From contig OZ024743.1 in the NCBI GenBank assembly GCA_964016885.1, forward strand, positions 38,068,001-38,132,000: a DNA stretch of 64,000 bases, given 5' to 3'. The position numbers and the translations under genes were made by a program. This DNA comes from Eledone cirrhosa. Taxonomy: Eukaryota. Under the pieces are notes generated by a model. It did no database searches. It had not been told where the DNA came from and saw only the letters and a list, made by a program, of their open reading frames with translations. Shown here one piece after another: positions 19,435 to 61,901 of the stretch; the stretch's first letter is position 1; every line of letters starts with the position of its first letter.

Positions 19435-20185
19435 TAGGGTGGGTAAAATTCCCGAGATCCATGGGCAAGTTCTCTCCAACGGTCTCTGTCCCTCATTATC
19501 ACTGCCATATCCTGCGTCTCCAAGAGACCAGTGTCTGTCCTTCGGGCATCAACATATGTTAACATCGGTCTTCCTCTTCCAGTGTGTCCATCCAGGGGCT
19601 GAGTGCAGTGTCAACTCTGGAAGTCGGTGAGCATGTCCAGCTAACCTCAGTCTCCTCTGTGCTATTCTGGAGCTGACTTTCGGGAGTCTACTGTAGATCT
19701 CTGAGTTCTTTATCCTCAGTGTATACTCATTAATATTCAGAGCTATCCTCAGTATTCTCGTGTAGCACCCATCCACCAACGAAGAGACGGATCTTGTCTT
19801 TACGAAGGTCCTACTTCCACACCGATCTGAAGCTGTGGCACGCCGCCCAGGCTTTGCTCTTCCTCTCAACCACATCATCTTCCGTATTCCCAATCTTTGC
19901 TCTCAAATACAGGAAGTCCTCAACCAATTCTAGCGGCTTCCCGCCTACATTAGTAATCTTCTCTGGCTTCTTAATATTCTGTAGCAGATACTTCGTCTTA
20001 ATCTCATTCATTCTCAGCCCCACACTCATCGACAGAGACTCCACCTCCAGCATCAACCCCTCTGCCTTCTTCACTGTGTTTGTGACCAGAACTATGCCAT
20101 CGGCAAATTTAGCATCCGATATCTGTTTCACTTAACTCTCCTGCTCTGAGCCGGTGTTACAGGAAAGCCAGAGCCCTGGTGTTTC
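19435..20185 (-). mobile_element. 5'-truncated RTE-clade LINE fragment (RT C-terminus and 3' end)
   Basis: FADGIVL..VGLRMN..KTKY..VEDFLYL..AWAACHSFRSVWK and DGCYTRILR..RRLRLAGHAHR. The 3' end is shared with 54455-54585. Confidence 0.85.
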
Positions 20186-23314: not shown

Positions 23315-23371
23315 GTCCAGAGATAGCCGTCGAAACGGCTTGAACTCTGCCGTCGGAGTTATACACTTTTT

Positions 23372-23375
<4 letters not shown>
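23315..23375. mobile_element. Single-arm remnant of the ~200-bp hairpin element family
   Basis: GTCCAGAGATAGCCGTCGAAACGGCTTGAACTCTGCCGTCGG matches one arm of 23468-23670. Confidence 0.75.
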
Positions 23376-23411
<36 letters not shown>

Positions 23412-23467
23412 CATATATATATATAATATATATTATATAAATTATATTTATATATATATATATATAT

Positions 23468-23669
23468 AGGAACCAGTAAGACCCCGGCGGCTGAGCTCAA
23501 GCCGTTTCGGCGGCTAATTCTGGACTAAATTAGTCCAGAATTAGCCGTCGAAACGGCTTGAGCTCAGCCGTCGGGGTCTTACTGGTTCCTATTACCCAAT
23601 CTACTACCCTAAGTATTGAGTACTTTGGTGCGTTATGGTCCACCTGGTTCCTTACCACATTTCCTTCGT

Positions 23670-23700: not shown

Positions 23701-24309
23701 AAGATAAATATAAAATGAAAGTGCTTTCATAAAGAATGTATTAGGTATTGACATATGTTTCTGTAACAGACGGAATACCTATGTATCGCTGCTTGCGTAA
23801 TCATATAATGTTACCAAGTATTCGATAACAAATGTATAATCAGTTGTCACTTCTTCAGAGATATTGGATAAATTGGAAAAAATCAGAAAAATTGAAGTAT
23901 TTATATTAGTTGTAAGAAAGGAAGAGAGGGGATAGTATATGACAGATGGCAATTCAATTTACTGGTAAAGAAGTATATAAAAGGTTTTTAATGAGAATAC
24001 AATGAGTATATGGCTTATTGTATTCTCATTAAAAAACTTTTGTAAATTGAATTGCCATCTGTCATATACTATCCCCTCTCTTCTTCCTTTCTTACAACTA
24101 ATATAAATACTTCAATTTTTCTGATTTTTTCCAATTTATCCAATATCTCTGAAGAAGTGACAACTGATTATATATTTGCTATCGAATACTTACTAACATT
24201 ATATGATTACGCAAGCAACGATACATAGGTATTCCGTCTGTTACAGAAACATATGTCAATACCTAATAAATTCCTTTATGAAAGCACTTTCATTTTATAT
24301 TCATCTTTT
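23699..24309. repeat. Long fold-back, ~300-bp arms, apex ~24003-24015
   Basis: The arms are reverse complements with scattered mismatches; flanked by (TA)n. Confidence 0.92.
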
Positions 24310-32139: not shown

Positions 32140-33470
32140 TATTAATAACAAAAAACAAATCCTCCATTCCCATTATGCCAAACCCATGACTTCCAAATAT
32201 CTGATCCACCGAAACTCAGCTGTTTCGGACCATACCAAGATCAACATACTGATTGCGGATTTGATACGGGTGATGAGAAACGTGTCCCGCATGTGCAACC
32301 CCGAAGAACTGGAGAGACACATACAACACTTCATCCACCGTATGCAGTTCTCTGGTTACAATCAGAGAGATAAAATCAAAGTGTATAGAGGAGCCAGAAC
32401 CAAATGGTAAAAAAATGGTAAATAATGACACAAATGGGACTTGCCCCTTGTATAGGAGAAAATTTTGGAATAGAATAGAAAGAACTAGGAATAAGACTAA
32501 TAGAATAAACTCATGGTATGATAACAATAAATACCAGAGTGTAATGTTCATCGATACAACCCCTAGAGGTGAATTAGCTTACAAATTTAGAAGGGCCCTA
32601 GATAAACATAAACTCAATATTAAGAGAGTAGAAAGACCAGGTACCTCCTCCATAAAAACACTTATTTGCAAGACATACCCTTTTCAAAGACCTCCCTGTA
32701 TAGATAAGAAATGTATAATCTGTAAATTAAGCCCCCATATTAACTGTAAAACAAGAAATGTAGTATATAGCATAAGATGTACTGAAGGACAATGTAGAGA
32801 TAAAAATATAGTGTACATAGGTGAGACAGCTCGTAGTAGAGGGGAACGGATAAATGAACACTGGCGAGACCTTCAAGATAGTAAAGAATCATCTGTACTC
32901 TACCAACATGCTAAAATAGAACATAAGGGTAAATTAGAGAACATAGAAATAAAAATAGAATCTACACACAGAAAAGACGCAATGCTTAGACAAATCACAG
33001 AGGCAATAAACATAAATGAATTACAACCAAAATTAAATAGAAAACATGAGTGGAACAGCAACATCACAACTTACAATTAAGGACAAAGTGAAAACACACA
33101 CGCACATAGAACAAACAACCAACCAGTAACATGTAAATAAACAAATAAATAAACGAATATAAACACACACAGACACCCGGATGTAACACATGCGCAAACT
33201 AAGCACACAACACACACACACAAACAAGATGGCGTAGGACAGAACAAAGGAGAGGGATAAAAAACAAAGAAAAAAATCCCCAGTCACCAAAGAGGTCACA
33301 GAATGTGTGACGAAAGAACTTTGACAATATATAAACAACCATCTGGTTGTGGAACCAACCAACCGTAAATTTATAAATTCCTAAATTTATAAATTTATTA
33401 TAATAAATTGAAGTGAAAGCGAGTGGTGCGTGTGTTTCTTATTGGCAACATAACCCTCCCAAAGTATAAC
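32140..33470 (+). mobile_element. 5'-truncated Penelope-like element (RT thumb, Cys linker, GIY-YIG, 3' UTR)
   Basis: ORFs 32099-32410 and 32415-33080: HYAKPMTS..IHRNSA, CIDKKCIIC..CKTRNVVYSIRC..YIGETARS..ERINEH..ITEAINI..PKLN. One frame break. Confidence 0.9.
33283..33325 (+). ncRNA. Decayed hammerhead in the PLE 3' region
   Basis: GTCA-CCAAAGA-G-GTCAC AGAATGT GTGAC-GAAAG AA CTT-TGAC: stems I and II are intact but the CUGANGA box is mutated. Confidence 0.55.
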
Positions 33471-33489
33471 AATATATATATACATATAT

Positions 33490-33628
33490 ATAGGAAAAAG
33501 TATGAACCCGGTGGCAGAGCTCAATCCGTTTCGATGGGTATTTCTGGACTAGTCAATCTATTACCCTAAGTATTGAGTACTCTGCTGCGTCATAGTCCAT
33601 CTGGTTCTTTACCACATTTCCTTCGTTA
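33490..33628. mobile_element. Hairpin-plus-tail family copy lacking its second arm
   Basis: First arm and apex are joined directly to the tail. Confidence 0.8.
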
Positions 33629-34138: not shown

Positions 34139-34642
34139 TAAACGGAATAGAAAATGCTGACAAATTGTTCACAGTTGAAAAATAGTTTAATTAGGAATAA
34201 AAGAGTATTAGTATTTGTATTGGTTAGTATTCAGTTGTGATTTTAAGTTTTTACCTGTTGCGCATTTCTAAATCGATTTCTAAATGCTTTTCAAAAATAA
34301 TTTTGAGATAGAGCGTCCGTGTTGGTTGCTCTGATCTGATTTGTTTTGGGATTTCTACCTGTTTTTATGTTAAAAAAGTGGCTCCAGCTCTACTTGGTGT
34401 TGCAAAAATTCTTGTGGTCAAAACAATTTTGATTGGTCGTTAGATGTCATGTTAATGTGAAATATTTATTTTGCGCCATGACTGAGAAATGACTCTTTCA
34501 CAACAAATATGTGTGTGTTTTTGTGTGTGTGTAGTAGTAGTAAAGTGTTCGATGTTGTGATAATGGTTACCAGGGATGTGTGTGCGAACCGCAGCCTGTT
34601 GACAGTTCAAATGGCTATTAAGATAAGTGTGTGTGTGTGTGT

Positions 34643-34689
<47 letters not shown>

Positions 34690-35217
34690 TATAGCAGAGT
34701 AATTCGTGGTAGCGGGATGGTCAGTATGAATGTGTCTGTAAGGAGTGGGTGGTATTTCAGCATGTCAAAAGATATTTTTCAGGTTTTGTCTTATACGGAG
34801 AAGTGTGTGTGTGTGTGTGTGTGTGTGTATAAGTCTCTTTGTATGTTAATGTACGCGTGTGTATGTGTGTGTGTGTGTGTATGTATATATATGTGTGTGT
34901 GTGTGTGTGCGTCAGAATGTGTGTGTGTGTGTGTGTGGGTGGACCAGTATTTTTTTCCCCTGGTAAAATGGTGTACATTATTCGATATTTTCAGTAAAAT
35001 CGATTCTCTCAATAGAACATCAAAAATCTTAACAATAAAAGGTGTGAAATGATATTCACCATATATATATATATACATATATTCACTATATATATATATA
35101 TATTTTGTGTTGTACCGTAGAACATGTGTGTTTACGTATGTCATTGTGTTTATATGTGGGTAGATATGTGTGCTGATGTAGGTATGTATGTTGACGTGTG
35201 TATGTTGTGGGTTCGTC

Positions 35218-35897
35218 TTAGGGAGAAGTGTTTAGACGGGGTCCGTATTTGTTAATAAAGTAAGATTCCTTGCTGATGCGCTAGGTGTGGGTGGCATTAT
35301 CTTTAAATTTGTAGAGGGAAAAGATTCTGAAGTTGGGATGATTTTGGGCGGCACAGGTATCAATGTGTTCACTCAGTGGTATTTTCCTGTATTCCCGTAT
35401 TTTGGGATCTATGGACAGTCATGCGTTGGCGGAGGCTGTATTTGGTCTGGCCTATGTATTGTTCTCGACAACCTGAGCAAGTTAATACATATATTAGATT
35501 TTCCGATGCACATGTAAAATTGTGTTTTACTATAAAACGTTGTCCTTCTTTGAAATAGAATTCCGAACCCTCTATTAGGTTGATGCAAATGCCACAGTTG
35601 TGTCTATCGCATTTTTCTACTTTGGGTTTCGTTGTTCTGATTGGTAGTACTTTGGCAGGTGTTAGGATGTTTTTCATTGACTTTGATTGTCTTTTGCTCT
35701 TTATGATATCGAGTGTTCGTAGGATTTGGTTCATTCTATGGTCCTTTTTCAATACGGGGATGTTCTGGAGGATGGTGTCAAAGGCCTCATTTTTGAGGGC
35801 GTTGTGTGTGGAGATGTATGGAAGAGCTTTTAGTTTCGGTTGATTTACTTTAGGGTGTCTAAGTTCCTGGGTACTGAGTTTTAGGGCACGTTGGATT
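35218..35897 (-). pseudogene. Penelope GIY-YIG endonuclease fragment, array unit 1 (repeated in all 5 units)
   Basis: CDRHNCGIC..NFTCASENLIYVLTCSGCREQYIGQTK..LRQRMTVHR; continues after a frameshift as EHIDTC..KESYFINKYGPRLN. Unit 2 has an extra TAA at 38044. Confidence 0.9.
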
Positions 35898-36644
35898 CTT
35901 ATTAACAATGTGGTTCAATGCATCGTGTTGAAGAACAATAATATGAGATACGTGATATTTTAGTAAGTAAGTTAATTTTATAATTTTCTTATTTTACGTC
36001 TCTCATATATTTGTTCTGCAACCCCATGCATTGAACCACATTGTTAATAAGACGAAACCTATATATTTGATAGCATTGATATGCATCTGTGTGTATATAA
36101 ATGTTACTAGATATAAATTCCTTATAATTATCTCCAATTCATTTGTCGAGCAATATTTGGCCATGACTGCTACTATGGTAGTAAGCTAGCCGCTGTCTTA
36201 ATAACCACTCGCTTTCCACTGATTGACCTCGATGTCACGTGATTGATTCTTTTTGAATTTGCCACGGACGTAGAGGCAGTGATTTTGTCAATGGCTTGGA
36301 ATCCAGTCCACGCATCGCTATTTCCATTCCACTGAATTATTTTTTTAATAAGTTTCCAGTGTCCTCGCTATGCCTGGAGACCTATACGGAAAAAGACTTT
36401 CCTGATGACGGAATGATTTTCCATAAGTTTCTTCGGAAAATATATTTACTCCATTCCAGAAACTAATTAGTTGGAAGTGATTTTTTAGTAAGTAAGTTAA
36501 TTTTATAATTTTCTTATTTTACGTCTCTCATATTATTGTTCTGCAACCCCATGCATTGAACCACATTGTTAATAAGACAAAACCTATATATTTGCTAGCA
36601 TTGATATGCATCTGTGTGTATATAGATGTTACTAGATATAAATT

Positions 36645-36650
<6 letters not shown>
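35898..36650 (+). mobile_element. Retrozyme-like non-coding element (525-bp monomer + ~165-bp direct repeat + ~55-bp inverted 5' stub), array unit 1
   Basis: Direct repeat at 35961 and 36486, inverted stub at 35898-35953, internal hammerhead; homolog at 61294-61901. Confidence 0.85.
36396..36478 (+). ncRNA. Type I hammerhead ribozyme, array unit 1
   Basis: ACTTTC-CTGATGA-C-GGAATG...CATTCC-A-GAAAC TAATTA GTT-GGAAGT: 6-bp stem I, extended stem II, palindromic stem III. Confidence 0.85.
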
Positions 36651-36685
<35 letters not shown>

Positions 36686-37343
36686 TAAACGGAATAGAAA
36701 ATGCTGACAAATTGTTCACAGTTGAAAAATAGTTTAATTAGGAATAAAAGAGTATTAGTATTTGTATTGGTTAGTATTCAGTTGTGATTTTAAGTTTTTA
36801 CCTGTTGCGCATTTCTAAATCGATTTCTAAATGCTTTTCAAAAATAATTTTGAGATAGAGCGTCCGTGTTGGTTGCTCTGATCTGATTTGTTTTGGGATT
36901 TCTACCTGTTTTTATGTTAAAAAAGTGGCTCCAGCTCTACTTGGTGTTGCAAAAATTCTTGTGGTCAAAACAATTTTGATTGGTCGTTAGATGTCATGTT
37001 AATGTGAAATATTTATTTTGCGCCATGACTGAGAAATGACTCTTTCACAACAAATATGTGTGTGTTTTTGTGTGTGTGTAGTAGTAGTAAAGTGTTCGAT
37101 GTTGTGATAATGGTTACCAGGGATGTGTGTGCGAACCGCAGCCTGTTGACAGTTCAAATGGCTATTAAGATAAGTGTGTGTGTGTGTGTGTGTATCTGTG
37201 TGTGTGTGTGTGTGTGCGCGTGTGTGTGTGTGTATAGCAGAGTAATTCGTGGTAGCGGGATGGTCAGTATGAATGTGTCTGTAAGGAGTGGGTGGTATTT
37301 CAGCATGTCAAAAGATATTTTTCAGGTTTTGTCTTATACGGAG

Positions 37344-37404
<61 letters not shown>

Positions 37405-38934
37405 AGTCTCTTTGTATGTTAATGTACGCGTGTGTATGTGTGTGTGTGTGTGTATGTATATATATGTGTGTGTGTGTGTGGGTGGACCAGTATTTTTTTC
37501 CCCTGGTAAAATGGTGTACATTATTCGATATTTTCAGTAAAATCGATTCTCTCAATAGAACATCAAAAATCTTAACAATAAAAGGTGTGAAATGATATTC
37601 ACCATATATATATACATATATTCACTATATATATATATATATATATTTTGTGTTGTACCATAGAACATGTGTGTTTACGTATGTCATTGTGTTTATATGT
37701 GGGTAGATATGTGTGCTGATGTAGGTATGTATGTTGACGTGTGTATGTTGTGGGTTCGTCTTAGGGAGAAGTGTTTAGACGGGGTCCGTATTTGTTAATA
37801 AAGTAAGATTCCTTGCTGATGCGCTAGGTGTGGGTGGCATTATCTTTAAATTTGTAGAGGGAAAAGATTCTGAAGTTGGGATGATTTTGGGCGGCACAGG
37901 TATCAATGTGTTCACTCAGTGGTATTTTCCTGTATTCCCGTATTTTGGGATCTATGGACAGTCATGCGTTGGCGGAGGCTGTATTTGGTCTGGCCTATGT
38001 ATTGTTCTCGACAACCTGAGCAAGTTAATACATATATTAGATTTTACGATGCACATGTGAAATTGTGTTTTACTATAAAACGTTGTCCTTCTTTGAAATA
38101 GAATTCCGAACCCTCTATTAGGTTGATGCAAATGCCACAGTTGTGTCTATCGCATTTTTCTACTTTGGGTTTCGTTGTTCTGATTGGTAGTACTTTGGCA
38201 GGTGTTAGGATGTTTTTCATTGACTTTGATTGTCTTTTGCTCTTTATGATATCGTGTGTTCGTAGGATTTGGTTCATTCTATGGTCCTTTTTCAATACGG
38301 GGATGTTCTGGAGGATGGTGTCAAAGGCCTCATTTTTGAGGGCGTTGTGTGTGGAGATGTATGGAAGAGCTTTTAGTTTCGGTTGATTTACTTTAGGGTG
38401 TCTAAGTTCCTGGGTACTGAGTTTTAGGGCACGTTGGATTCTTATTAACAATGTGGTTCAATGCATGGTGTTGAAGAACAATAATATGAGAGACGTGATT
38501 TTTTAGTAAGTTAATTTTATAATTTTCTTATTTTACGTCTCTCATATATTTGTTCTGCAACCCCATGCATTGAACCACATTGTTAATAAGACGAAACCTA
38601 TATATTTGATAGCATTGATATGCATCTGTGTGTATATAAATGTTACTAGATATAAATTCCTTATAATTATCTCCAATTCATTTGTCGAGCAATATTTGGC
38701 CATGACTGCTACTATGGTAGTAAGCTAGCCGCTGTCTTAATAACCACTCGCTTTCTACTGATTGACCTCGATGTCACGTGATTGATTCTTTTTGAATTTG
38801 CCACGGACGTAGAGGCAGTGATTTTGTCAATGGCTTGGAATCCAGTCCACGCATCGCTATTTCCATTCCACTGAATTATTTTTTTAATAAGTTTCCAGTG
38901 TCCTCGCTATGCCTGGAGACCTATACGGAAAAAG

Positions 38935-39017
38935 ACTTTCCTGATGACGGAATGATTTTCCATAAGTTTCTTCGGAAAATATATTTACTCCATTCCAGAA
39001 ACTAATTAGTTGGAAGT
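38935..39017 (+). ncRNA. Type I hammerhead, array unit 2
   Basis: Same sequence as unit 1. Confidence 0.85.
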
Positions 39018-39183
39018 GATTTTTTAGTAAGTAAGTTAATTTTATAATTTTCTTATTTTACGTCTCTCATATTATTGTTCTGCAACCCCATGCATTGAAC
39101 CACATTGTTAATAAGACAAAACCTATATATTTGCTAGCATTGATATGCATCTGTGTGTATATAGATGTTACTAGATATAAATT

Positions 39184-39246
<63 letters not shown>

Positions 39247-39902
39247 TAAACGGAATAGAAAATGCTGACAAATTGTTCACAGTTGAAAAATAGTTTAATT
39301 AGGAATAAAAGAGTATTAGTATTTGTATTGGTTAGTATTCAGTTGTGATTTTAAGTTTTTACCTGTTGCGCATTTCTAAATCGATTTCTAAATGCTTTTC
39401 AAAAATAATTTTGAGATAGAGCGTCCGTGTTGGTTGCTCTGATCTGATTTGTTTTGGGATTTCTACCTGTTTTTATGTTAAAAAAGTGGCTCCAGCTCTA
39501 CTTGGTGTTGCAAAAATTCTTGTGGTCAAAACAATTTTGATTGGTCGTTAGATGTCATGTTAATGTGAAATATTTATTTTGCGCCATGACTGAGAAATGA
39601 CTCTTTCACAACAAATATGTGTGTGTTTTTGTGTGTGTGTAGTAGTAGTAAAGTGTTCGATGTTGTGATAATGGTTACCAGGGATGTGTGTGCGAACCGC
39701 AGCCTGTTGACAGTTCAAATGGCTATTAAGATAAGTGTGTGTGTGTGTGTGTGTATGTGTGTGTGTGTGTGTGTGCGCGTGTGTGTGTGTGTATAGCAGA
39801 GTAATTCGTGGTAGCGGGATGGTCAGTATAAATGTGTCTGTAAGGAGTGGGTGGTATTTCAGCATGTCAAAAGATATTTTTCAGGTTTTGTCTTATACGG
39901 AG

Positions 39903-39937
<35 letters not shown>

Positions 39938-41501
39938 AGTCTCTTTGTATGTTAATGTACGCGTGTGTATGTGTGTGTGTGTGTGTATGTATATATATGT
40001 GTGTGTGTGTGTGTGCGTCAGAATGTGTGTGTGTGTGTGTGTGGGTGGACCAGTATTTTTTTCCCCTGGTAAAATGGTGTACATTATTCGATATTTTCAG
40101 TAAAATCGATTCTCTCAATAGAACATCAAAAATCTTAACAATAAAAGGTGTGAAATGATATTCACCATATATATATATATACATATATTCACTATATATA
40201 TATATATATTTTGTGTTGTACCATAGAACATGTGTGTTTACGTATGTCATTGTGTTTATATGTGGGTAGATATGTGTGCTGATGTAGGTATGTATGTTGA
40301 CGTGTGTATGTTGTGGGTTCGTCTTAGGGAGAAGTGTTTAGACGGGGTCCGTATTTGTTAATAAAGTAAGATTCCTTGCTGATGCGCTAGGTGTGGGTGG
40401 CATTATCTTTAAATTTGTAGAGGGAAAAGATTCTGAAGTTGGGATGATTTTGGGCGGCACAGGTATCAATGTGTTCACTCAGTGGTATTTTCCTGTATTC
40501 CCGTATTTTGGGATCTATGGACAGTCATGCGTTGGCGGAGGCTGTATTTGGTCTGGCCTATGTATTGTTCTCGACAACCTGAGCAAGTTAATACATATAT
40601 TAGATTTTCCGATGCACATGTGAAATTGTGTTTTACTATAAAACGTTGTCCTTCTTTGAAATAGAATTCCGAACCCTCTATTAGGTTGATGCAAATGACA
40701 CAGTTGTGTCTATCGCATTTTTCTACTTTGGGTTTCGTTGTTCTGATTGGTAGTACTTTGGCAGGTGTTAGGATGTTTTTCATTGACTTTGATTGTCTTT
40801 TGCTCTTTATGATATCGTGTGTTCGTAGGATTTGGTTCATTCTATGGTCCTTTTTCAATACGGGGATGTTCTGGAGGATGGTGTCAAAGGCCTCATTTTT
40901 GAGGGCGTTGTGTGTGGAGATGTATGGAAGAGCTTTTAGTTTCGGTTGATTTACTTTAGGGTGTCTAAGTTCCTGGGTACTGAGTTTTAGGGCACGTTGG
41001 ATTCTTATTAACAATGTGGTTCAATGCATCGTGTTGAAGAACAATAATATGAGATACGTGATTTTTTAGTAAGTAAGTTAATTTTATAATTTTCTTATTT
41101 TACGTCTCTCATATATTTGTTCTGCAACCCCATGCATTGAACCACATTGTTAATAAGACGAAACCTATATATTTGATAGCATTGATATGCATCTGTGTGT
41201 ATATAAATGTTACTAGATATAAATTCCTTATAATTATCTCCAATTCATTTGTCGAGCAATATTTGGCCATGACTGCTACTATGGTAGTAAGCTAGCCGCT
41301 GTCTTAATAACCACTCGCTTTCCACTGATTGACCTCGATGTCACGTGATTGATTCTTTTTGAATTTGCCACGGACGTAGAGGCAGTGATTTTGTCAATGG
41401 CTTGGAATCCAGTCCACGCATCGCTATTTCCATTCCACTGAATTATTTTTTTAATAAGTTTCCAGTGTCCTCGCTATGCCTGGAGACCTATACGGAAAAA
41501 G

Positions 41502-41584
41502 ACTTTCCTGATGACGGAATGATTTTCCATAAGTTTCTTCGGAAAATATATTTACTCCATTCCAGAAACTAATTAGTTGGAAGT
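41502..41584 (+). ncRNA. Type I hammerhead, array unit 3
   Basis: Same sequence as unit 1. Confidence 0.85.
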
Positions 41585-41750
41585 GATTTTTTAGTAAGTA
41601 AGTTAATTTTATAATTTTCTTATTTTACGTCTCTCATATTATTGTTCTGCAACCCCATGCATTGAACCACATTGTTAATAAGACAAAACCTATATATTTG
41701 CTAGCATTGATATGCATCTGTGTGTATATAGATGTTACTAGATATAAATT

Positions 41751-41813
<63 letters not shown>

Positions 41814-42471
41814 TAAACGGAATAGAAAATGCTGACAAATTGTTCACAGTTGAAAAATAGTTTAATTAGGAATAAAAGAGTATTAGTATTTGTATTGGTT
41901 AGTATTCAGTTGTGATTTTAAGTTTTTACCTGTTGCGCATTTCTAAATCGATTTCTAAATGCTTTTCAAAAATAATTTTGAGATAGAGCGTCCGTGTTGG
42001 TTGCTCTGATCTGATTTGTTTTGGGATTTCTACCTGTTTTTATGTTAAAAAAGTGGCTCCAGCTCTACTTGGTGTTGCAAAAATTCTTGTGGTCAAAACA
42101 ATTTTGATTGGTCGTTAGATGTCATGTTAATGTGAAATATTTATTTTGCGCCATGACTGAGAAATGACTCTTTCACAACAAATATGTGTGTGTTTTTGTG
42201 TGTGTGTAGTAGTAGTAAAGTGTTCGATGTTGTGATAATGGTTACCAGGGATGTGTGTGCGAACCGCAGCCTGTTGACAGTTCAAATGGCTATTAAGATA
42301 AGTGTGTGTGTGTGTGTGTGTATCTGTGTGTGTGTGTGTGTGTGCGCGTGTGTGTGTGTGTATAGCAGAGTAATTCGTGGTAGCGGGATGGTCAGTATGA
42401 ATGTGTCTGTAAGGAGTGGGTGGTATTTCAGCATGTCAAAAGATATTTTTCAGGTTTTGTCTTATACGGAG

Positions 42472-42540
<69 letters not shown>

Positions 42541-44072
42541 AGTCTCTTTGTATGTTAATGTACGCGTGTGTATGTGTGTGTGTGTGTGTATGTATATATA
42601 TGTGTGTGTGTGTGTGGGTGGACCAGTATTTTTTTCCCCTGGTAAAATGGTGTACATTATTCGATATTTTCAGTAAAATCGATTCTCTCAATAGAACATC
42701 AAAAATCTTAACAATAAAAGGTGTGAAATGATATTCACCATATATATATACATATATTCACTATATATATATATATATATTTTGTGTTGTACCATAGAAC
42801 ATGTGTGTTTACGTATGTCATGGTGTTTATATGTGGGTAGATATGTGTGCTGATGTAGGTATGTATGTTGACGTGTGTATGTTGTGGGTTCGTCTTAGGG
42901 AGAAGTGTTTAGACGGGGTCCGTATTTGTTAATAAAGTAAGATTCCTTGCTGATGCGCTAGGTGTGGGTGGCATTATCTTTAAATTTGTAGAGGGAAAAG
43001 ATTCTGAAGTTGGGATGATTTTGGGCGGCACAGGTATCAATGTGTTCACTCAGTGGTATTTTCCTGTATTCCCGTATTTTGGGATCTATGGACAGTCATG
43101 CGTTGGCGGAGGCTGTATTTGGTCTGGCCTATGTATTGTTCTCGACAACCTGAGCAAGTTAATACATATATTAGATTTTCCGATGCACATGTGAAATTGT
43201 GTTTTACTATAAAACGTTGTCCTTCTTTGAAATAGAATTCCGAACCCTCTATTAGGTTGATGCAAATGCCACAGTTGTGTCTATCGCATTTTTCTACTTT
43301 GGGTTTCGTTGTTCTGATTGGTAGTACTTTGGCAGGTGTTAGGATGTTTTTCATTGACTTTGATTGTCTTTTGCTCTTTATGATATCGTGTGTTCGTAGG
43401 ATTTGGTTCATTCTATGGTCCTTTTTCAATACGGGGATGTTCTGGAGGATGGTGTCAAAGGCCTCATTTTTGAGGGCGTTGTGTGTGGAGATGTATGGAA
43501 GAGCTTTTAGTTTCGGTTGATTTACTTTAGGGTGTCTAAGTTCCTGGGTACTGAGTTTTAGGGCACGTTGGATTCTTATTAACAATGTGGTTCAATGCAT
43601 CGTGTTGAAGAACAATAATATGAGATACGTGATTTTTTAGTAAGTAAGTTAATTTTATAATTTTCTTATTTTACGTCTCTCATATATTTGTTCTGCAACC
43701 CCATGCATTGAACCACATTGTTAATAAGACGAAACCTATATATTTGATAGCATTGATATGCATCTGTGTGTATATAAATGTTACTAGATATAAATTCCTT
43801 ATAATTATCTCCAATTCATTTGTCGAGCAATATTTGGCCATGACTGCTACTATGGTAGTAAGCTAGCCGCTGTCTTAATAACCACTCGCTTTCCACTGAT
43901 TGACCTCGATGTCACGTGATTGATTCTTTTTGAATTTGCCACGGACGTAGAGGCAGTGATTTTGTCAATGGCTTGGAATCCAGTCCACGCATCGCTATTT
44001 CCATTCCACTGAATTATTTTTTTAATAAGTTTCCAGTGTCCTCGCTATGCCTGGAGACCTATACGGAAAAAG

Positions 44073-44155
44073 ACTTTCCTGATGACGGAATGATTTTCCA
44101 TAAGTTTCTTCGGAAAATATATTTACTCCATTCCAGAAACTAATTAGTTGGAAGT
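44073..44155 (+). ncRNA. Type I hammerhead, array unit 4
   Basis: Same sequence as unit 1. Confidence 0.85.
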
Positions 44156-44321
44156 GATTTTTTAGTAAGTAAGTTAATTTTATAATTATCTTATTTTACG
44201 TCTCTCATATTATTGTTCTGCAACCCCATGCATTGAACCACATTATTAATAAGACAAAACCTATATATTTGCTAGCATTGATATGCATCTGTGTGTATAT
44301 AGATGTTACTAGATATAAATT

Positions 44322-44386
<65 letters not shown>

Positions 44387-45043
44387 TAAACGGAATAGAA
44401 AATGCTGACAAATTGTTCACAGTTGAAAAATAGTTTAATTAGGAATAAAAGAGTATTAGTATTTGTATTGGTTAGTATTCAGTTGTGATTTTAAGTTTTT
44501 ACCTGTTGCGCATTTCTAAATCGATTTCTAAATGCTTTTCAAAAATAATTTTGAGATAGAGCGTCCGTGTTGGTTGCTCTGATCTGATTTGTTTTGGGAT
44601 TTCTACCTGTTTTTATGTTAAAAAAGTGGCTCCAGCTCTACTTGGTGTTGCAAAAATTCTTGTGGTCAAAACAATTTTGATTGGTCGTTAGATGTCATGT
44701 TAATGTGAAATATTTATTTTGCGCCATGACTGAGAAATGACTCTTTCACAACAAATATGTGTGTGTTTTTGTGTGTGTGTAGTAGTAGTAAAGTGTTCGA
44801 TGTTGTGATAATGGTTACCAGGGATGTGTGTGCGAACCGCAGCCTGTTGACAGTTCAAATGGCTATTAAGATAAGTGTGTGTGTGTGTGTGTATCTGTGT
44901 GTGTGTGTGTGTGTGCGCGTGTGTGTGTGTGTATAGCAGAGTAATTCGTGGTAGCGGGATGGTCAGTATGAATGTGTCTGTAAGGAGTGGGTGGTATTTC
45001 AGCATGTCAAAAGATATTTTTTCAGGTTTTGTCTTATACGGAG

Positions 45044-45084
<41 letters not shown>

Positions 45085-46606
45085 AGTCTCTTTGTATGTT
45101 AATGTACGCGTGTGTATGTGTGTGTATGTATATATATGTGTGTGTGTGTGTGGGTGGACCAGTATTTTTTTCCCCTGGTAAAATGGTGTACATTATTCGA
45201 TATTTTCAGTAAAATCGATTCTCAATAGAACATCAAAAATCTTAACAATAAAAGGTGTGAAATGATATTCACCATATATATATACATATATTCACTATAT
45301 ATATATATATATATTTTGTGTTGTACCATAGAACATGTGTGTTTACGTATGTCATTGTGTTTATATGTGGGTAGATATGTGTGCTGATGTAGGTATGTAT
45401 GTTGACGTGTGTATGTTGTGGGTTCGTCTTAGGGAGAAGTGTTTAGACGGGGTCCGTATTTGTTAATAAAGTAAGATTCCTTGCTGATGCGCTAGGTGTG
45501 GGTGGCATTATCTTTAAATTTGTAGAGGGAAAAGATTCTGAAGTTGGGATGATTTTGGGCGGCACAGGTATCAATGTGTTCACCCAGTGGTATTTTCCTG
45601 TATTCCCGTATTTTGGGATCTATGGACAGTCATGCGTTGGCGGAGGCTGTATTTGGTCTGGCCTATGTATTGTTCTCGACAACCTGAGCAAGTTAATACA
45701 TATATTAGATTTTCCGATGCACATGTGAAATTGTGTTTTACTATAAAACGTTGTCCTTCTTTGAAATAGAATTCCGAACCCTCTATTAGGTTGATGCAAA
45801 TGCCACAGTTGTGTCTATCGCATTTTTCTACTTTGGGTTTCGTTGTTCTAATTGGTAGTACTTTGGCAGGTGTTAGGATGTTTTTCATTGACTTTGATTG
45901 TCTTTTGCTCTTTATGATATCGTGTGTTCGTAGGATTTGGTTCATTCTATGGTCCTTTTTCAATACGGGGATGTTCTGGAGGATGGTGTCAAAGGCCTCA
46001 TTTTTGAGGGCGTTGTGTGTGGAGATGCATGGAAGAGCTTTTAGTTTCGGTTGATTTACTTTAGGGTGTCTAAGTTCCTGGGTACTGAGTTTTAGGGCAC
46101 GTTGGATTCTTATTAACAATGTGGTTCAATGCATGGTGTTGAAGAACAATAATATGAGAGACGTGATTTTTTAGTAAGTAAGTTAATTTTATAATTTTCT
46201 TATTTTACGTCTCTCATATATTTGTTCTGCAACCCCATGCATTGAACCACATTGTTAATAAGACGAAACCTATATATTTGATAGCATTGATATGCATCTG
46301 TGTGTATATAAATGTTACTAGATATAAATTCCTTATAATTATCTCCAATTCATTTGTCGAGCAATATTTGGCCATGACTGCTACTATGGTAGTAAGCTAG
46401 CCGCTGTCTTAATAACCACTCGCTTTCTACTGATTGACCTCGATGTCACGTGATTGATTCTTTTTGAATTTGCCACGGACGTAGAGGCAGTGATTTTGTC
46501 AATGGCTTGGAATCCAGTCCACGCATCGCTATTTCCATTCCACTGAATTATTTTTTTAATAAGTTTCCAGTGTCCTCGCTATGCCTGGAGACCTATACGG
46601 AAAAAG

Positions 46607-46689
46607 ACTTTCCTGATGACGGAATGATTTTCCATATGTTTCTTCGGAAAATATATTTACTCCATTCCAGAAACTAATTAGTTGGAAGT
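46607..46689 (+). ncRNA. Type I hammerhead, array unit 5
   Basis: Same as unit 1 except one loop SNP. Confidence 0.85.
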
Positions 46690-46855
46690 GATTTTTTAGT
46701 AAGTAAGTTAATTTTATAATTTTCTTATTTTACGTCTCTCATATATTTGTTCTGCAACCCCATGCATTGAACCACATTGTTAATAAGACAAAACCTATAT
46801 ATTTGCTAGCATTGATATGCATCTGTGTGTATATAGATGTTACTAGATATAAATT

Positions 46856-46927
<72 letters not shown>

Positions 46928-49669: not shown

Positions 49670-52600
49670 CACTTTGACCGACCAGTCTGTCGGGCGTCCA
49701 TTCGGCGCCGCTGGACTCAGCACGCCGTCCATTCCTCTCTGGATCGTGCTTTCCTCATCCATGTAGTCCCAATCGTATTCTTAAAATCGTAACTCCACCT
49801 TCGTGGAGGCCTTCCGAATGGTCGTTTCCGCTCGCGCGGGTACCACTCGGCAACTGCGCGAGTCCACCGATTATCGGTGAACCGGGCGACGTGTCCAGCC
49901 CATCTGAACTTGCTGCGCATATACTCCGAGATGACGTCCCTCACGCAGGACTTCTGTCTGATGACTTCGCTCCCGATGTGCTCTCTCAACGAGGTTCCTA
50001 GCATTGATCTCTCCATGGCTCTTTGAGCCGTTACCAGCCTCTGCTCTTCTCTCTTCGTTGTAGCCAAAGTTTCCCTGCCATATAACATTGCAGGTAAAAC
50101 TGTGCTATTGAAGAGGTTGGCGCTGGTGGTTTTGTCCAACCTCCCCTTGAGCACATCCCTTATGCCGTCGAACGCCTTTCATCCGGCCCTTACTCTCCGC
50201 GAGATCTCCTTCTCAATATCTCGGCGCATGTTCACCTCTTATCCCAGGTAGACGTATTCCTCCACCTCCTCTATTTCATCACCGCCAACCACCATTCGAC
50301 ATGTTGGTATGTTGTCGGACCACATGAACTTCGTTTTCATGCGGTTCATCTTGAGGCCTACTGCAGTGCTTTTGATGTCGAACTCCGTCAGCATGGTCTG
50401 AAGCTGATCCGTGGTTTCATCGATGAGTACGATGTCATCAGCGAAACGGAGGTGGGTAAGTATCTCACCTCTGATGTCGACACCGCCTTGCCAGTCAATG
50501 CTTCTGATGAAAAGTTTTAGAGAGATCGTATCTTCTTGCTTCACTCCCTTCTCCACCAGCACTCGTACGGGTGATGACAGCAGAGCTATGTCGGTGATAC
50601 ATCCGGAACTCGCCTTCATGAGCAGTTGAACGTATTGCGCCTCGACTCCTTGCATCTGCAGCGAGTTCAGAACTGCGTTGATTTCGACGCTGTCGAAGGC
50701 CTTCTCGTAGTCTACGAACGCGACGCAAAGAGGCATCTTGTATTCTTTTGCTCGCTCAAGCAGTTATGTCAGAGTAAATATGTGGTCCATCGTGCTGTAG
50801 TTTTTCCGGAAGCCGGTTTGCTCTCTCGGTTGCTGTTCGTTCAGATGACGTGATAACCTGTTCAGGATTATCTTCGTGAACAGCTTTTACACGTGCGACA
50901 GCAGGCATATGGGTCAGTAGTTCTTCAGCAATTCTCTATCGCCCTTCTTGTATAGCATGATGGTATTCGACTCTTCCACTGCGAGGGTATTCTAACCTCG
51001 TCCAGATAGTGTGTGAATCGCTCGGCGAGGATTTTCCAGAGCTGCTCTCCGCCTGACTTCAACACCTCCGATGTTATGCCGTCTTTCCCTGGCGCCTTTC
51101 GGCTTTTCATCAAGCCGACGGCTCTTTCGACCTCCCCGACAAGGATGCGTGGACGTTTTCTTCCTGTTGGAGTGAAGGCAACAGCTGCACATTCCAGGCA
51201 GACCTGAAGAGCTTGGTGTAGAAGTCTTCGCAAACCTTTTCCACCTCACTCTTGTCGCTGACCGGTACTCCAGCTGTGTTTTTCAGGGTCGTCAACTCCG
51301 ATCTGTACATTGTCATGTCCCTCTCGCATTTCTTGACGCTCTTCTTTTCCTTTGCTGCCTTCACAAGCTTCTCCACCCGGTATGCCTCGAAGTCTCTCTT
51401 CAGTTGTTTACATATCACTCTGCTGGGAAGGAAATATTCGAGGTGATCTTCAGGTGTCCACTTCATATTTTCCCTCTTCTCAAGCAATTTCATAGTTTCC
51501 TCCAAGACTCTTCCCTTCCGCTCCCTCAGGCACACACCCTTAGCCTTCTTCAAGCACTCCTTCAGTTTCCTTATCAGTGACTCGTAGTCAGCGTCTATGC
51601 CGTCTCCTTGACGCCACCTTTCCTGCATAATGGCTTCCTGCAGCTGTGCCTCGTTGAAGACCCGGACGCGTTCTCCCTTCGATGCCGAATGGAGTACCTT
51701 CTTCTTCCTCGTCCGGTCGATGGCGATTCTCGCCCTCACCAGACGATGATCATTTCCAGTGTTGAATGGCGTTATGACGGAGACGTCCTGCAGTATGCGT
51801 CGCTTGTCGACCAAGATGTAGTCAATCTCGTTTCCGTGCTCAGAATTTGGCGATACCCAGGTCCATCTCTTCTCCTTCTTCCTGAATAGGCTGTTTCCGA
51901 TGTAGAACCGTCTCGCCTCCGCCATGGTGACCAGACGCTCTCCTCTCTCATTCCGCTCTCCTAGGCCGAATCTTCCGACATACTCTTCCCCTTGGCGTCC
52001 CTGTCCGACCTTTGCGTTGAAGTCTCCCATCACGACGGTGTAAGTGGACTTCACAGCTAGCACTTTGTCTAGCTGGCGATAGAATTCTTCCACGCCATCT
52101 TCGTCGCTGGCACTTGTGGGAGCGTAGGTCTGGACGATCTTGAGGGTGGCTTTCCCTGAGAGTTTCACGCTCAGTACACCAATCCGTGACGATATGACTG
52201 GCAGGAAGCGACCTTCGTAGCCCATTCCTTGCTTACAATGAACCCTATACCTCCGACCGAACTGGCACCCTGTGCTTTCCCGAGTCTCAAGGCGCATTCA
52301 CCTTGCCATCGCGAACTCGTATCCCTCTTCTGGTAGGTCTCACGTGACACCTGCTCGTCTTCTCCTCCATTAGGTGGTTCAGTCCTTGACCCCTGCCAAA
52401 GACCTGCAGTTGTAGGTGCATATGGCAAGTTTAGTCCTGTTCCTTGGCGGCCTTCGGGAACCTGTGATTCGTAGCAGCCTCTCGTCGTTCGGGTTGCACT
52501 CCGCCGTCGTGGAGTGGCCCGATTGACACGCAGGGTACCGAGGCCCTTTTCTTCGTGCTGTTTTAACCATAAGATGACGCCATCTCACTGGCTGGGCGGG

Positions 52601-56360: not shown

Positions 56361-56930
<570 letters not shown>

Positions 56931-57078
56931 AATTAACTCCGTACTCGCACCACCAACTACACAAACAAAGACGGGTGAGTTGCATTACGTTGAGTGCTCT
57001 CCATATTATTACATCGAGGTTGCCCACACGGAATGACCAGTTCTATCCGGTAGTGAACCAACAAACAGAAATAAATAA

Positions 57079-57136
<58 letters not shown>

Positions 57137-57144
<8 letters not shown>

Positions 57145-60100
57145 CGTAGTTAAGAAAGCCACAACAATGCAGAGGGAAATCTCGAGGTAGGAAGTGAATG
57201 ATAGATAGGAGAAACAGGAGAAAGTGAAAATTGGGAGAGACAAAGATGAAAACAAAACAAAGGTAGAAGGGTTACCGTAGTGGAGATTTAATCCCAATAT
57301 TTCGGGCTCACGCCCATCAACGGGGGAAAGTTCCAAAAGTGGGGGAACAGGCCAAGCGGAGAAAGTTGTGATGTCGTTAAGACAGGAATGCCGTTATGGG
57401 GAGAAAATTATTTAAAATGTAAACGAGGGAAAGAATGCGCGTGCGCGTGATAGGCTGTGGCAAAAGCTACTGACCAAATGGGTTAAATCAAGAGGGTGCG
57501 CTAGCGTGTGAAAGCCGTAAAATATGTGTGTGTAAATATATATGTGTGTGTAACTGTGTGTGTATAAGTGTAAGTGTGTATATGTGTGAGTGTGTGTGTG
57601 TGTGAAAGATAGTGGGCTGTAGAAGCTGGAAATCAAAGGGTGTGAAAGGTGGTAGGTTGTAAAACATGTGTGCGTGTATAAATATAGATGTGTGTGTGTA
57701 AGCGTATGGGTATACATGTGTGTGTAACTGTGTGTGTATATGTTTGAGTGCGTGTGTGTGTGAAAGATAGTGGGCTGTAGAAGCTGGAAATCAAAGGGTG
57801 TGAAAGGTGGTAGGTTGTAAAAACATGTGTGCGTGTATAAATATAGATGTGTGTGTGTATGCTTATGGGTATGCATATACGTGCGTGTGTGTGAAGATAG
57901 CAGGCCGTAGGCTGTGAATGGTCACTATGGTTAAGTTAGCCATGTCAGCTCATTTCTCTCAGCCCGGTTGTTAAGTGGGGGTCTGAGGTTCTTAATAACA
58001 AGTGCTTCCTTTATCCTTAAGGATCCGATGCTGCGTTCAGTCGCTAGGACTGTGACCAAGGGTCTACCCTGTGGGTTTCCGCATTTAAGGATGTGTTTAC
58101 GGAAGGAAGATGCGTTGGTGTTGATATGTTCCTTGATACGAACATGTAGGGGTCGGATGGTGCTACCTATGTAAAACTTGTTACATTTATCGCATTGAAT
58201 CTTATATACGACATAGGTGCGTAGGCAATCTGCCCCCCGTATCGGGCAGTTGCTGAGGGAACACGTCCCATCTGACTCGTCGGGTTTGCTGGAGAGGCAT
58301 CTTCGCAGCGAAGGTCCTGTGTGGGCCAAATATATGTCAAGTCCCTCCGTCCGTATGGCCCTGCGGATAGCGTTCGTGGTATATTCACTCAGGTGGGGGA
58401 TTTTAAAGAAGCACCTGCTTTTATTTAAGTTTCTAGTGGGTGTCTGTCTATTGGGTCTGGGGTCTCTAATTCTGTTAATCAGTCGCTTGGGATAACCATT
58501 AGATCTGAGTAGATTACGGAATTGCGTGGTATGGGTGAGACCACCCATCGGGTCGCTGCATCTGTTAGTGATCCGTGTCAGTTCATTTAGGACATAGCCT
58601 CTCTTAGCGTTGTTGGGGAGGGCTGAGTTGTAATGCACAAATAAGTCCTTGCACGCTGCTTTGCGGTAGAAAGTGGTGTTTATGTCTCCTTCTTCCGAGA
58701 TGTTGATACGGAAGTCGAGGAGGGCGAGTGACCCGTCTTCTCCTGGGTGTTCGATGGTGAAATCGACGTGATGGTCAGTATCGTTGACGATTTGGTGAAT
58801 TTCATTCGCCATCTCCCGGGAAGAAGTAAGTATCAGGATGTCATCAACGTATCTGGAGTAGAAGGCGACGGCGTTGGGTTGGCAGGTATTGAGTGCCTTG
58901 CGTTCCAGGTGGTCCATGTACGAGATCGCAAGTATGCCGGACAGACTAGAGCCCATAGGTAGCCCAGATATTTGTTTGTACGTGTGGCCGAGGAAATTGA
59001 AGAGTGCATTATCCACAACGAAGGAGAGGAGTTGGTGGATGTCCGTGTGTGTGAGTCCGAAGCAGTGTAAGTTAGATGCTCGGACTTGTTCGGTCAACAG
59101 GTCGACAGCTGGGGATGCTGGTACGGAGGTATAAAGGGCGACCACATCAAGACTGAAGGCATAACCGTTGTCCTTTCTGGTGTTGGGCGCCAGATGGTGT
59201 AGTCGCTCCAAGACCTCCTTTGAGCTGCAGACGTGGGCTGCTAGTGTGTGTAGAATGGGTTTCAGTAGTGTGGAGAGCAGCCACGATATTTTGTAGAGTG
59301 GGCCCTCCACGCTAGAGACAATGGGCCTGATTTTCAAATCGGGTCCTTGTTTATGTGTTTTAACCAGGTGGTAGAAGGTGGGTAGTTTGCTGTTTCGAGT
59401 CATTATGTTGTTTTTTACCTTCTTTGGCAGTTTTCGTTGGACACAGATGTTAGTCCATATGGTGTTAATGCCTTCCTCGATTAGAGTCGAGGAGGTCCCT
59501 GTGACTTTCGAGTAGAGGCTGTGATCATTAAGATGTTGGAGAGCTAAGTTGTTGTAGGTCTCTCTCGAGATGACACAGAATTCTTTCCCCTTGTCAGAGG
59601 GAAGGTACACAAGGTTCCTGGATCTTAAATTGTGCATTGGTGAGGTTGCGTTTATTGTGTGTGTGTGTGTGTTGGGAAAGGATGTTAGAGATAGAATGTT
59701 TCAACCTGAGTTGTTTAGTGTCAAGTTCGTGGTTGGTGGGTGGGGGGTGGAGTGGGTTGTCGAGGTGATACGTGGGGAGTGTGGGGTGGGTTGTGGGGTT
59801 GTAATCGATCTCGGTGTTGTTTTGGATGGCGGTTAGCCATTTCAGTTGATATGCTGTCCGACAGAAGTTGGTTTCGATGTCGAGTTTCAGTCTATCATCG
59901 AGACGCTGTGTAATGATGAACTTGGGTCCGAGGCGCAGAAGTTCGAGTTCGTCGTTGGTGAGAGTACCGGTTAGGTCGGTAACGAGGTGTGAAGCATCGT
60001 TGGTAGGTAGATCGATGTTGGGGGGTGTAGCGGAGGGTGTTGTATAGCTGTTGCCCCTGGTGTGGTTGTAGTCGGTCCGTCTGTGGGAGCGGATGTTGTC

Positions 60101-61116
60101 ATTGTAGTATTTGTTTACAGTCCATTCCTATTTCCGTATAAGGCGCTGTTTATCATATTTGACTCTGGTGTGGTAACACTGATCGATAGCTTTGCGTATT
60201 TCCTGGACCTGGTGGTCAGGGGTGAGGGTTGGAGCTATACGATCTATGTGCTCGGAAAGCGTTTGTATATGGAGTCGCAGTTGGTGGTGGTTGTGTCGTA
60301 GTATTTTCTTGATAAACGTGCGTTGAATGTGGCGGATTGTGTTTTCGAAGGATGGTGATCGTAAACATTCGGGTAGATGTATATTCCTGATGGTAGTTGG
60401 AATGATGTTGTTCTTTAGGCAGCGTTTTAAGAAGGTAATTTGGCAACCGAGTTTGGCACGATTCTCCGATAGTCTGAATAGGTCCCTTATGGGTGCAAAC
60501 AAGTCCTGGCTCAGGTGTAATGATAAGAGGGTGTTAAAGTTTGCTTGAAGCATTGTGAAATGTGTAAAATACGTAGTTAAGAAAGCCACAACAATGCAGA
60601 GGGAAATCTCGAGGTAGGAAGTGAATGATAGATAGGAGAAACAGGAGAAAGTGAAAATTGGGAGAGACAAAGATGAAAACAAAACAAAGGTAGAAGGGTT
60701 ACCGTAGTGGAGATTTAATCCCAATATTTCGGGCTCACGCCCATCAACGGGGGAAAGTTCCAAAAGGGGGGGAACAGGCCAAGCGGAGAAAGTTGTGATG
60801 TCGTTAAGACAGGAATGCCGTTATGGGGAGGAAATTATTTAAAATTTAAACGAGGGAAAGAATGCGCGTGCGCGTGATAGGCTGTGGCAAAAGCTACTGA
60901 CCAAATGGGTTAAATCAAGAGGGTGCGCTAGCGTGTGAAAGCCGTAAAATATGTGTGTGTAAATATATATGTGTGTGTAACTGTGTGTGTATAAGTGTAA
61001 GTGTGTATATGTGTGATTGTGTGTGTGTGTGAAAGATAGTGGGCTGTAGAAGCTGGAAATCAAAGGGTGTGAAAGGTGGTAGGTTGTAAAACATGTGTGC
61101 GTGTATAAATATAGAT
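57137..61116 (-). mobile_element. Near-full-length Penelope-like retroelement with tandem pseudo-LTRs
   Basis: ~550-bp direct repeats at 57137-57689 and 60565-61116 flank an RT/GIY-YIG ORF; the 3' end runs into (TA)n. Confidence 0.95.
57931..60553 (-). pseudogene. PLE polyprotein (N-term, RT, Cys linker, GIY-YIG) with one TAG and one frameshift
   Basis: Starts MLQANFNTLL; TAG at 60128; LRLGPKF; frameshift near 59630; then PSDKG, KTHK..IRPIVS, SLDVVALYTSV, GLPMGSSLS, RYVDD, VVYKIQC..FYIGST..RIKEH. Confidence 0.92.
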
Positions 61117-61236
61117 AACGATAAATTGGAATAGAATGAAACGAAATTTCATTTCTCACTCTTAGTACGGCACTTACTTAAATGTAATTATGTATGTATA
61201 CGTACATACATATATATATACAGACGTACAGTAGCA

Positions 61237-61293
<57 letters not shown>

Positions 61294-61304
<11 letters not shown>

Positions 61305-61901
61305 GACGTAAAATAAGAAAATTTTAAAAAAATTAAAAAAATTAACCTACTTACTAAAATTTTCACTCCAACTAATTAGTTTCTGCAATGGGATAAAGAC
61401 AGTTACGTAATCCAACTGTCGAGAATTCATTGCGTCATCAGGGAGTCTATTCTCAGCTAAGTCTCCAGGCAATGCGCGGACACTGGGGACTCATATAAAA
61501 ATAATAATAATTCGGTAGATGGAACAGCTAGCGGGGACTGGATTCCATGTACTGAAAAGCTCGCTGCCTCTGGTCAAATGGCAGATTCTAAAGAATCAAT
61601 CACGTGACACTGAGGCTAGTCGGTAGGATGGGATGGTAAGATGACAGAAGCCTACTATCACACCAATAAATTAGTAGTTGTTTTGGCAGGTTTGCTCGAC
61701 AAATAAGCAATTTGGAGATAAATATAGAGAATTTAGTATATCTACTAACATATGCGTACAGATTTACGCTAATGCCAGCAAATACACAGGTTATGTCATA
61801 GTACCTAGGTGGTTCGATGCAGGAGGATGCAGAACAATAATATAAAAGACGTAAAATAAGAAAATTTTAAAAAAATTATAAAATTAACTTACTTACTAAA
61901 A
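61294..61901 (-). mobile_element. Diverged dispersed copy of the array's retrozyme-like element (period ~542 bp)
   Basis: Collinear blocks shared with 35961-36650: TGTCACGTGATTGATTCTTT, TGGAATCCAGTCC, TGCCTGGAGAC, GAAACTAATTAGTTGG. Confidence 0.85.
61365..61446 (-). ncRNA. Type I hammerhead ribozyme
   Basis: ACTCC-CTGATGA-C-GCAATG...CATTGC-A-GAAAC TAATTA GTT-GGAGT. Confidence 0.87.

Follow-up and report, generated by a model that had tools for sequence, protein, structure and literature searches.

A tandem hammerhead repeat without ORF that shows the insertion anatomy of Penelope-like elements

A tandem repeat that carries a hammerhead fold and lies against a fragment of a Penelope-like element (PLE) raises the question whether it is the pLTR of an ordinary PLE or a retrozyme-like RNA of its own and, in the second case, which machinery mobilises it. 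Non-LTR retrozymes are known in metazoans, and PLEs have been proposed as their mobilisers (PMC7229834, PMC8969392). Their mobilisation in animals is debated, and the earlier case for PLEs, as these texts present it, rests on co-occurrence and pLTR homology. In its main text, the preprint of Li et al. (bioRxiv 10.64898/2026.07.22.740005) argues from both for a PLE origin in vertebrates, favours local amplification by unequal crossover from solo pLTRs and reports that 8 of 9 predicted Xenopus retrozymes failed to cleave. The signature described for PLEs consists of a truncated, inverted arm and a tail of 30-40 bp that is found at one end (PMC8557442, PMC3846280), and a PLE primes in vitro at two internal RNA sites, the tail being the interval between them (PMC11167929).

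The repeat was analysed in a 64-kb stretch of DNA (positions 38,068,001-38,132,000, called the window, in whose own numbering all coordinates are given) of a 3.0-Gb genome rich in microsatellites. The unit measures 525 nt in the array copy, and monomers of 521-571 nt are found across the family, from 55 of which a profile was built. The absence of an ORF in the original prediction held, the longest ATG ORF being of 17 aa in sense and 53 aa in antisense; the GC content is 34-37%, thus below 50%. The copies of the window and their neighbours are the following.

34141..46858: five-fold tandem module of a Neptune arm and a unit arm, period ~2.55 kb, TA tracts at both bounds
34141..35898 (-): left arm, a 5'-truncated Neptune-type PLE
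35897..35953 (-): inverted unit piece of 57 nt at the joint with the Neptune fragment
35952..36648 (+): right arm, ~1.3 units of the 525-nt repeat, 5'-truncated, stopping at E2 in (TA)n
61296..61901 (-): solo arm of subfamily B, 71% identical to the array copy, 1.1 units, stopping at E1

The five array modules differ by 3-12 substitutions per 1.4 kb. In the left arm, a CX4CxxC linker and a GIY-YIG domain (~35230-35898) are followed by the arm's own pLTR, which stops at a site called N1; that all five array copies abut, in inverted orientation, this GIY-YIG ORF fragment had been overlooked. The solo arm of subfamily B lies within a TA tract belonging to a second family of hammerhead repeats. 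The array copy and this dispersed copy had been taken as two lone copies, and both belong to large subfamilies, two of the at least 11 that were distinguished and that are 72-92% identical. Exact genome matches of a 16-nt core amounted to 13,135, those of the full-core pattern to 10,824 and those of a pattern holding the E-box to 7,318, with 0 for the control of each.

The ribozyme was delimited from sequence and covariation.

36396..36478 (+): type I hammerhead fold
36396-36401/36473-36478 (+): stem I, 5-6 bp in the family
36402-36408 (+): core CTGATGA, CTGAYGA family-wide
36409 and 36458 (+): unpaired extra C and unpaired extra A, flanking stem II
36410-36415/36452-36457 (+): stem II, 6 bp, then an internal loop and an inner helix
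36459-36462 (+): GAAA, next to which comes the palindromic stem/loop III
36470-36472 (+): GUU, with predicted cleavage at 36472/36473

Stem III sits within a 12-nt palindrome, and the stem II domain spans ~45 nt with a conserved, pyrimidine-rich internal loop. The unpaired C before and the unpaired A after stem II, which had escaped notice, are seen in 28 of 29 cores (the extra A in 28-29 of 29); the GUU and the extra A are features of nearly all cores. The two compensatory changes between the window copies on which the original prediction relied, GGAATG/CATTCC against GCAATG/CATTGC in stem II and ACTTTC/GGAAGT against ACTCC/GGAGT in stem I, are indeed present. The invariance of CTGATGA, GAAAC and TAATTAGTT is true of these two copies, which are identical there, but 12 of 29 cores read CTGACGA. 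The inner helix of stem II had been described as fully replaced; instead, the alignment places the homologous helix at other columns, where it covaries via intermediates. Both inner helices named before appear in single-sequence folds, the register of the array copy being ambiguous.

For the covariation analysis, 161 cores with intact upstream flank were reduced to 12 clusters at 90% identity. Among the 12 representatives, 91.7% of the alignment cells pair, and the covariation score is 0.281 versus 0.150 when shuffled (0/500), a comparison that is not a p-value since related sequences can beat the shuffle and relatedness inflates it, and versus at most 0.102 when slid. All four Watson-Crick types occur at one pair of stem II, without a mismatch. 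The pair types and the slid control argue for a structure under selection at the RNA level, as does the covariation between subfamilies. A non-coding, retrozyme-like mobile RNA with a structure under selection, which had been proposed for this locus, fits these data.

The ribozyme bears the marks listed for PLE minimal hammerheads in the account of PMC4209133: an extra base between 9 and 10.1, G10.1-C11.1, a helix II of at least 6 bp, a short helix I and a palindromic loop 3. Unlike those ribozymes, it has an unpaired A before G12, a GUU triplet and a two-helix stem II with the conserved pyrimidine-rich loop. It also departs from the canonical hammerhead of the Rfam models, as G12 does not directly follow C11.1 in the unit cores. 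When Rfam was searched for a prior description, no hammerhead entry matched the unit up to E 5 and E 10, and only microsatellite-driven miRNA noise was returned.

Three further elements precede the ribozyme.

36209..36217 (+): predicted anti-stem, more stable than stem I in its pairing with the bases that directly follow the cleavage site
36233..36248 (+): E-box block TGTCACGTGATTGATT, invariant in 11/11 subfamily representatives
36352..36381 (+): conserved hairpin upstream of the ribozyme, z -2.8, 84% of cells paired

The hairpin and the E-box block had both been called conserved, in agreement with these values; double changes are found in 2 of 8 pairs of the hairpin. The E-box block is a putative internal Pol II promoter element. 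Approximately 15 nt after the cleavage site, a GTAAGT (36488-36497), which by its consensus we take to be a splice-donor-like motif, is kept in all 11 representatives; no acceptor was identified.

To describe the insertions, 106 independent unit loci were assembled, 61 of them by following the first 100 core matches along the chromosome and 45 as the best matches of two subfamilies; 24 loci were left out as window-array copies, overlaps or duplicates, and L104 and L105, which look like duplicates, were kept. The arms share two fixed 3' ends.

36529..36533 (+): E1, fixed 3' end and presumed priming site, also at ~36010 in the first repeat
36646..36650 (+): E2, fixed 3' end and presumed priming site
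36530..36648 (+): tail between E1 and E2, with two conserved predicted hairpin domains

E1 lies ~60-80 nt and E2 ~180-200 nt after the cleavage site, with a spacing of 117-119 nt in 131 of 144 measured copies; the hairpin domains of the tail show double changes in just 3 of 36 pairs. TA repeats adjoin 94 of 103 arm ends at the position-ordered loci. The insertions sit in (TA)n, where target-site duplications, which in non-LTR retrozymes exceed 4 bp when present, are unreadable, and the 5' ends of the arms are scattered over all distances. Two arms stand head to head at 65 of 106 loci (33 of the 61 position-ordered ones), with junctions that mostly overlap by 1-9 nt or abut. Inverted pairs numbered 68 in the 106 loci; 15 had an end beyond the classifier, and the 53 classifiable pairs all combine one E1 with one E2 (53/53, none homotypic), for which the chance under independent choice of two equally used sites is 2^-53. 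The tail is consequently at one end only in 53/53. The same one-of-each rule is followed by Neptune, an autonomous family of this genome, in which 10 of 11 pairs have a tail of 41 nt.

Head-to-tail tandems with at least two cores make up 20 of 103 position-ordered arms, with a maximum of four cores. Private variants are common to the arms of one insertion in 34% and 20%, versus 5% and 4% between loci, so that arms and successive rounds of one insertion share them four to seven times as often as different loci do. A single template would give such sharing, and so would a shared source locus or gene conversion. Among three independent runs compared, whose type is unspecified and which have no bearing on expression, contigs also end at 36010 (E1) and contain the inverted joints.

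The module of the window, in which a Neptune arm ending at N1 faces a unit arm ending at E2, fits the one-of-each rule and may be a template-switch chimera; it could also be two neighbouring insertions joined by a deletion. A probable template-switch chimera was found at L211 (G000:C1:56407000-56408800), where approximately one unit, crossing the cleavage site and lacking E1/E2 ends and TA at the joints, lies between two inverted arms of the second hammerhead family.

This PLE-type insertion anatomy, which went unseen in an otherwise supported interpretation, names the likely mobilising machinery. With a probability of about 0.78, the unit, which counts more than ten thousand copies, is a non-autonomous retrozyme RNA which is copied into (TA)n DNA by the reverse transcriptase/endonuclease of a PLE. 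The template is best read as a circular or multimeric RNA; a linear multimer accounts for the long arms as well as a circle does. In its presumed mode of working the unit resembles a retrozyme and in its mode of insertion a PLE, retrozymes as such being already known.

On this reading, a tandem copy would be transcribed from the internal promoter provided by the E-box block. Two ribozymes would pair via the palindromic stem III, cleave at the GUU and release a monomer of 520-570 nt, which may be ligated into a circle where the ribozyme is predicted to be held off: the conserved helix would capture the first bases after the cleavage site, outcompete stem I and so protect the circle. The PLE protein would bind the structured E1-E2 region and nick both strands of a TA tract, E1 serving to prime one strand and E2 the other, either within a single RNA or on sister RNAs, with the help of AUA(U) microhomology. 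Each cDNA would then travel round the template over a variable distance, and the two cDNAs would join at an overlap of a few bases.

The predicted folds bear on the first part of this scheme. Circular monomers fold better than shuffled ones (z -4.7 to -7.4; 25 shuffles), and the lowest-energy fold of the monomer buries the ribozyme core in 10 of 12 representatives, the inactive fold being favoured by a predicted 1.3-4.5 kcal/mol. As the intermolecular duplex formed by the invariant palindrome needed for dimer cleavage has -9.0 kcal/mol, we infer that cleavage depends on dimers. The conserved predicted helix begins exactly at the cleavage site, and an indel in the anti-stem is predicted to track one in stem I, which corresponds to approximately one evolutionary event. 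The extra A before G12 and the GUU, which may weaken the predicted ribozyme, speak against the retrozyme reading, as do the burial of the core and the failure of 8 of 9 predicted Xenopus retrozymes to cleave.

The same features would be accounted for if a non-autonomous RNA were mobilised by the PLE with a hammerhead which no longer cleaves or is unneeded, the template being an uncleaved linear multimer and the fold being kept for protein binding or stability. This alternative survives best, and it is in agreement with the report that ribozyme mutants were without effect on in vitro insertion and that no reads ended at the cleavage site (PMC11167929). We nevertheless consider it improbable, because the catalytic core is invariant across subfamilies that are 72-92% identical, with variation solely at the tolerant position 7, and because both the palindrome of dimer cleavage and the helix starting precisely at the cleavage site are kept.

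Whether the unit could be an ordinary pLTR was examined from the PLE side as well. The fragment abutting the array unit contains a GIY-YIG domain, with a Pfam score below the curated cut-off, and a CX4CxxC linker, which in PMC8557442 characterises Neptune, Nematis and Naiad; the C-terminal position of the GIY-YIG domain led to its assignment as Neptune-type. No trace of the unit was found at 25 other loci of this Neptune family, which has its own, different pLTR, as full-length copies confirmed, and in which a motif scan revealed no hammerhead. The unit was therefore rejected as the pLTR of the adjacent fragment. A link with the full Penelope-type element at 57135-61105 was also rejected, that element having its own pLTR.

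Five protein and four DNA probes from PLEs then served to look for joins to PLEs. For the original prediction, most copies abutting a PLE ORF would have been a refutation; a direct join was observed at one of the 106 unit loci, and unique sequence of no relation borders five further solo arms. Of the core-bearing arms, 97 of 151 reach back into the preceding unit, through up to four units and never into an ORF. Among the first 100 E2 sites of the matches listed, TA follows at 73 and more of the unit at 27, and shared foreign sequence beyond E2 was seen at none of the 100; likewise, none of 100 E-box sites among the matches listed leads into shared ORF-like sequence. No RT and GIY-YIG ORF between pLTRs was found at the unit loci examined. 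The 55-monomer profile was compared by nhmmer with 30 of the 10,596 candidate GIY-YIG loci, with 20 Neptune loci and with 4 stretches of PLE; its sole matches were unit copies, and it detected no pLTR homologue. Together, the 0/25 Neptune loci and the 1/106 direct joins indicate that the unit is not an ordinary pLTR; this holds for most copies, a rare autonomous parent being possible.

These counts also bear on a second alternative, according to which the unit is the pLTR of an ordinary autonomous PLE that left short, 5'-truncated insertions, its ORF-bearing copies being unsampled. The PLE-like anatomy and the ORF fragment adjoining all five array copies would suit it, and the sample covers 30 of 10,596 GIY-YIG candidates and ~1% of the unit loci. 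Yet the abutting Neptune family uses another pLTR, the sequence upstream is the previous unit and not an ORF in 97 of 151 arms, neither the 100 E2 sites nor the 100 E-box sites lead into a shared ORF-like sequence, and the ORF-less period is common to at least 11 subfamilies, which makes this alternative very improbable. That the tandem units are satellite DNA grown locally from solo pLTRs by unequal crossover, without an RNA cycle of their own (as in the 2026 preprint), is scarcely credible: the five-fold 2.55-kb array of the window does resemble DNA-level amplification, but the dispersed copies, of one to four units, combine fixed 3' ends with random 5' ends and have fresh TA flanks wherever they lie, and the covariation among subfamilies implies selection on RNA.

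For the non-autonomous retrozyme copied by a PLE, the likely donor candidate is a PLE of the Neptune type. Two facts weigh against the retrozyme reading here: the tail of ~118 nt is three times the known length, and no sequence link to any sampled PLE pLTR was found, no terminal likeness to an autonomous partner being detected in the approximately five PLE families sampled and the likeness of E1 and N1 being not significant (p 0.59). At L155, a Neptune pLTR lies directly upstream of a unit arm; this was first read as a template jump and was then lowered to weak evidence, because the dispersed copy of the window shows that solo arms can join a non-TA target with a small deletion. Neptune ends next to the unit through TA tracts (L160, L198) were rejected as a sign of partnership, as such neighbourhood is more frequent for another family.

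A bolder version of the scheme can be offered tentatively, as it is possible and on balance doubtful. A circular ribozyme RNA would have two structured priming sites 118 nt apart, and one PLE complex would use that single circle as rolling-circle template for the reverse transcription onto the two strands of a cut TA tract. Such an RNA would lack sequence kinship to the donor PLE, would have its ribozyme self-switched off in the circle, and would be one of several unrelated ribozyme RNAs that use, and template-switch within, the same PLE machinery of the genome.

Compared with metazoan non-LTR retrozymes as described by Cervera and de la Pena (2020, PMC7229834) and Li et al., the unit is likewise an ORF-less, low-GC tandem repeat with a type I hammerhead in each copy, thousands of copies, a predicted self-paired monomer and co-existing PLEs as proposed mobilisers. 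Its length of 521-571 nt compares with 150-450 nt (PMC7229834) and 51-972 nt (the 2026 preprint), and its ribozyme is PLE-type with a ~45-nt stem II domain, whereas theirs are canonical in these accounts. The two-ended head-to-head arms and the missing pLTR homologue set it apart from the metazoan retrozymes of these publications: the main text of the preprint makes no mention of head-to-head arms, tail or initiation, and the word 'inverted' does not occur in the available text of PMC7229834. No report of a two-ended signature in a retrozyme was found in the literature searched, which lay outside subscription papers, supplements, Dfam and Repbase.

With EN+ PLEs of the Neptune type, as presented in PMC8557442, PMC3846280 and PMC11167929, the unit shares the partial tandem, the inverted 5'-truncated second arm, the one-ended tail, (TA)n targeting and a hammerhead upstream of the priming sites. 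Unlike them, it has no RT or GIY-YIG ORF, its period is the non-coding unit alone, and its tail measures ~118 nt versus 30-40 nt. The non-autonomous Chlamys PLEs, e.g. MRC1, are also non-coding, pLTR-forming PLE passengers with multicopy head-to-tail insertions; those described in PMC8557442 belong to green algae, have a 3' end like that of their autonomous partner, which was not found for the unit, and are mostly devoid of hammerheads.

The two-site signature of PLEs is here read from the insertion scars of an ORF-less ribozyme repeat. As the cis sites are mapped to the nucleotide, the existing in vitro PLE assay is directly applicable. The strict one-of-each rule constrains PLE integration generally, in that each target strand would be primed, and each from its own RNA site, and the 118-nt tail indicates that the spacing of these sites is not fixed at 30-40 nt.

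Other repeats were noticed, most of them in the window. The second hammerhead family is an unrelated ORF-less tandem repeat (61902-62560 and 61104-61267; 1,633 candidates) with a unit of ~455-525 nt, an internal TA tract and a core near 62085 on the minus strand. A third, very abundant short family (23321-23519, 33480-33625) shows inverted arms in TA and two ends ~80 nt apart; going by this family, long tails may be common in the genome. The Penelope-type PLE at 57135-61105 (-) is near full-length, with RT and GIY-YIG, frameshifts and direct pLTRs that contain a degenerate hammerhead-like motif near 60720-60750. Another hammerhead-like motif, with a 9-bp stem I, lies in a repeat at ~63735-63790 (-), and yet another PLE family is represented by a 3' fragment that includes GIY-YIG (32277-33080, +). 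In the Neptune-type family (34141-35229, -; L168, L172, L174), long ORFs are near-intact, and the pLTR carries motifs that we take to be an E-box, a CCAAT and an E2F-like site. LINE-type fragments (endonuclease and RT) were recognised by eye from translations at 49700-52300 (-) and 19550-20130 (-), and near-perfect long inverted repeats of ~200 nt are present at 56518-56931 and 23731-24276.
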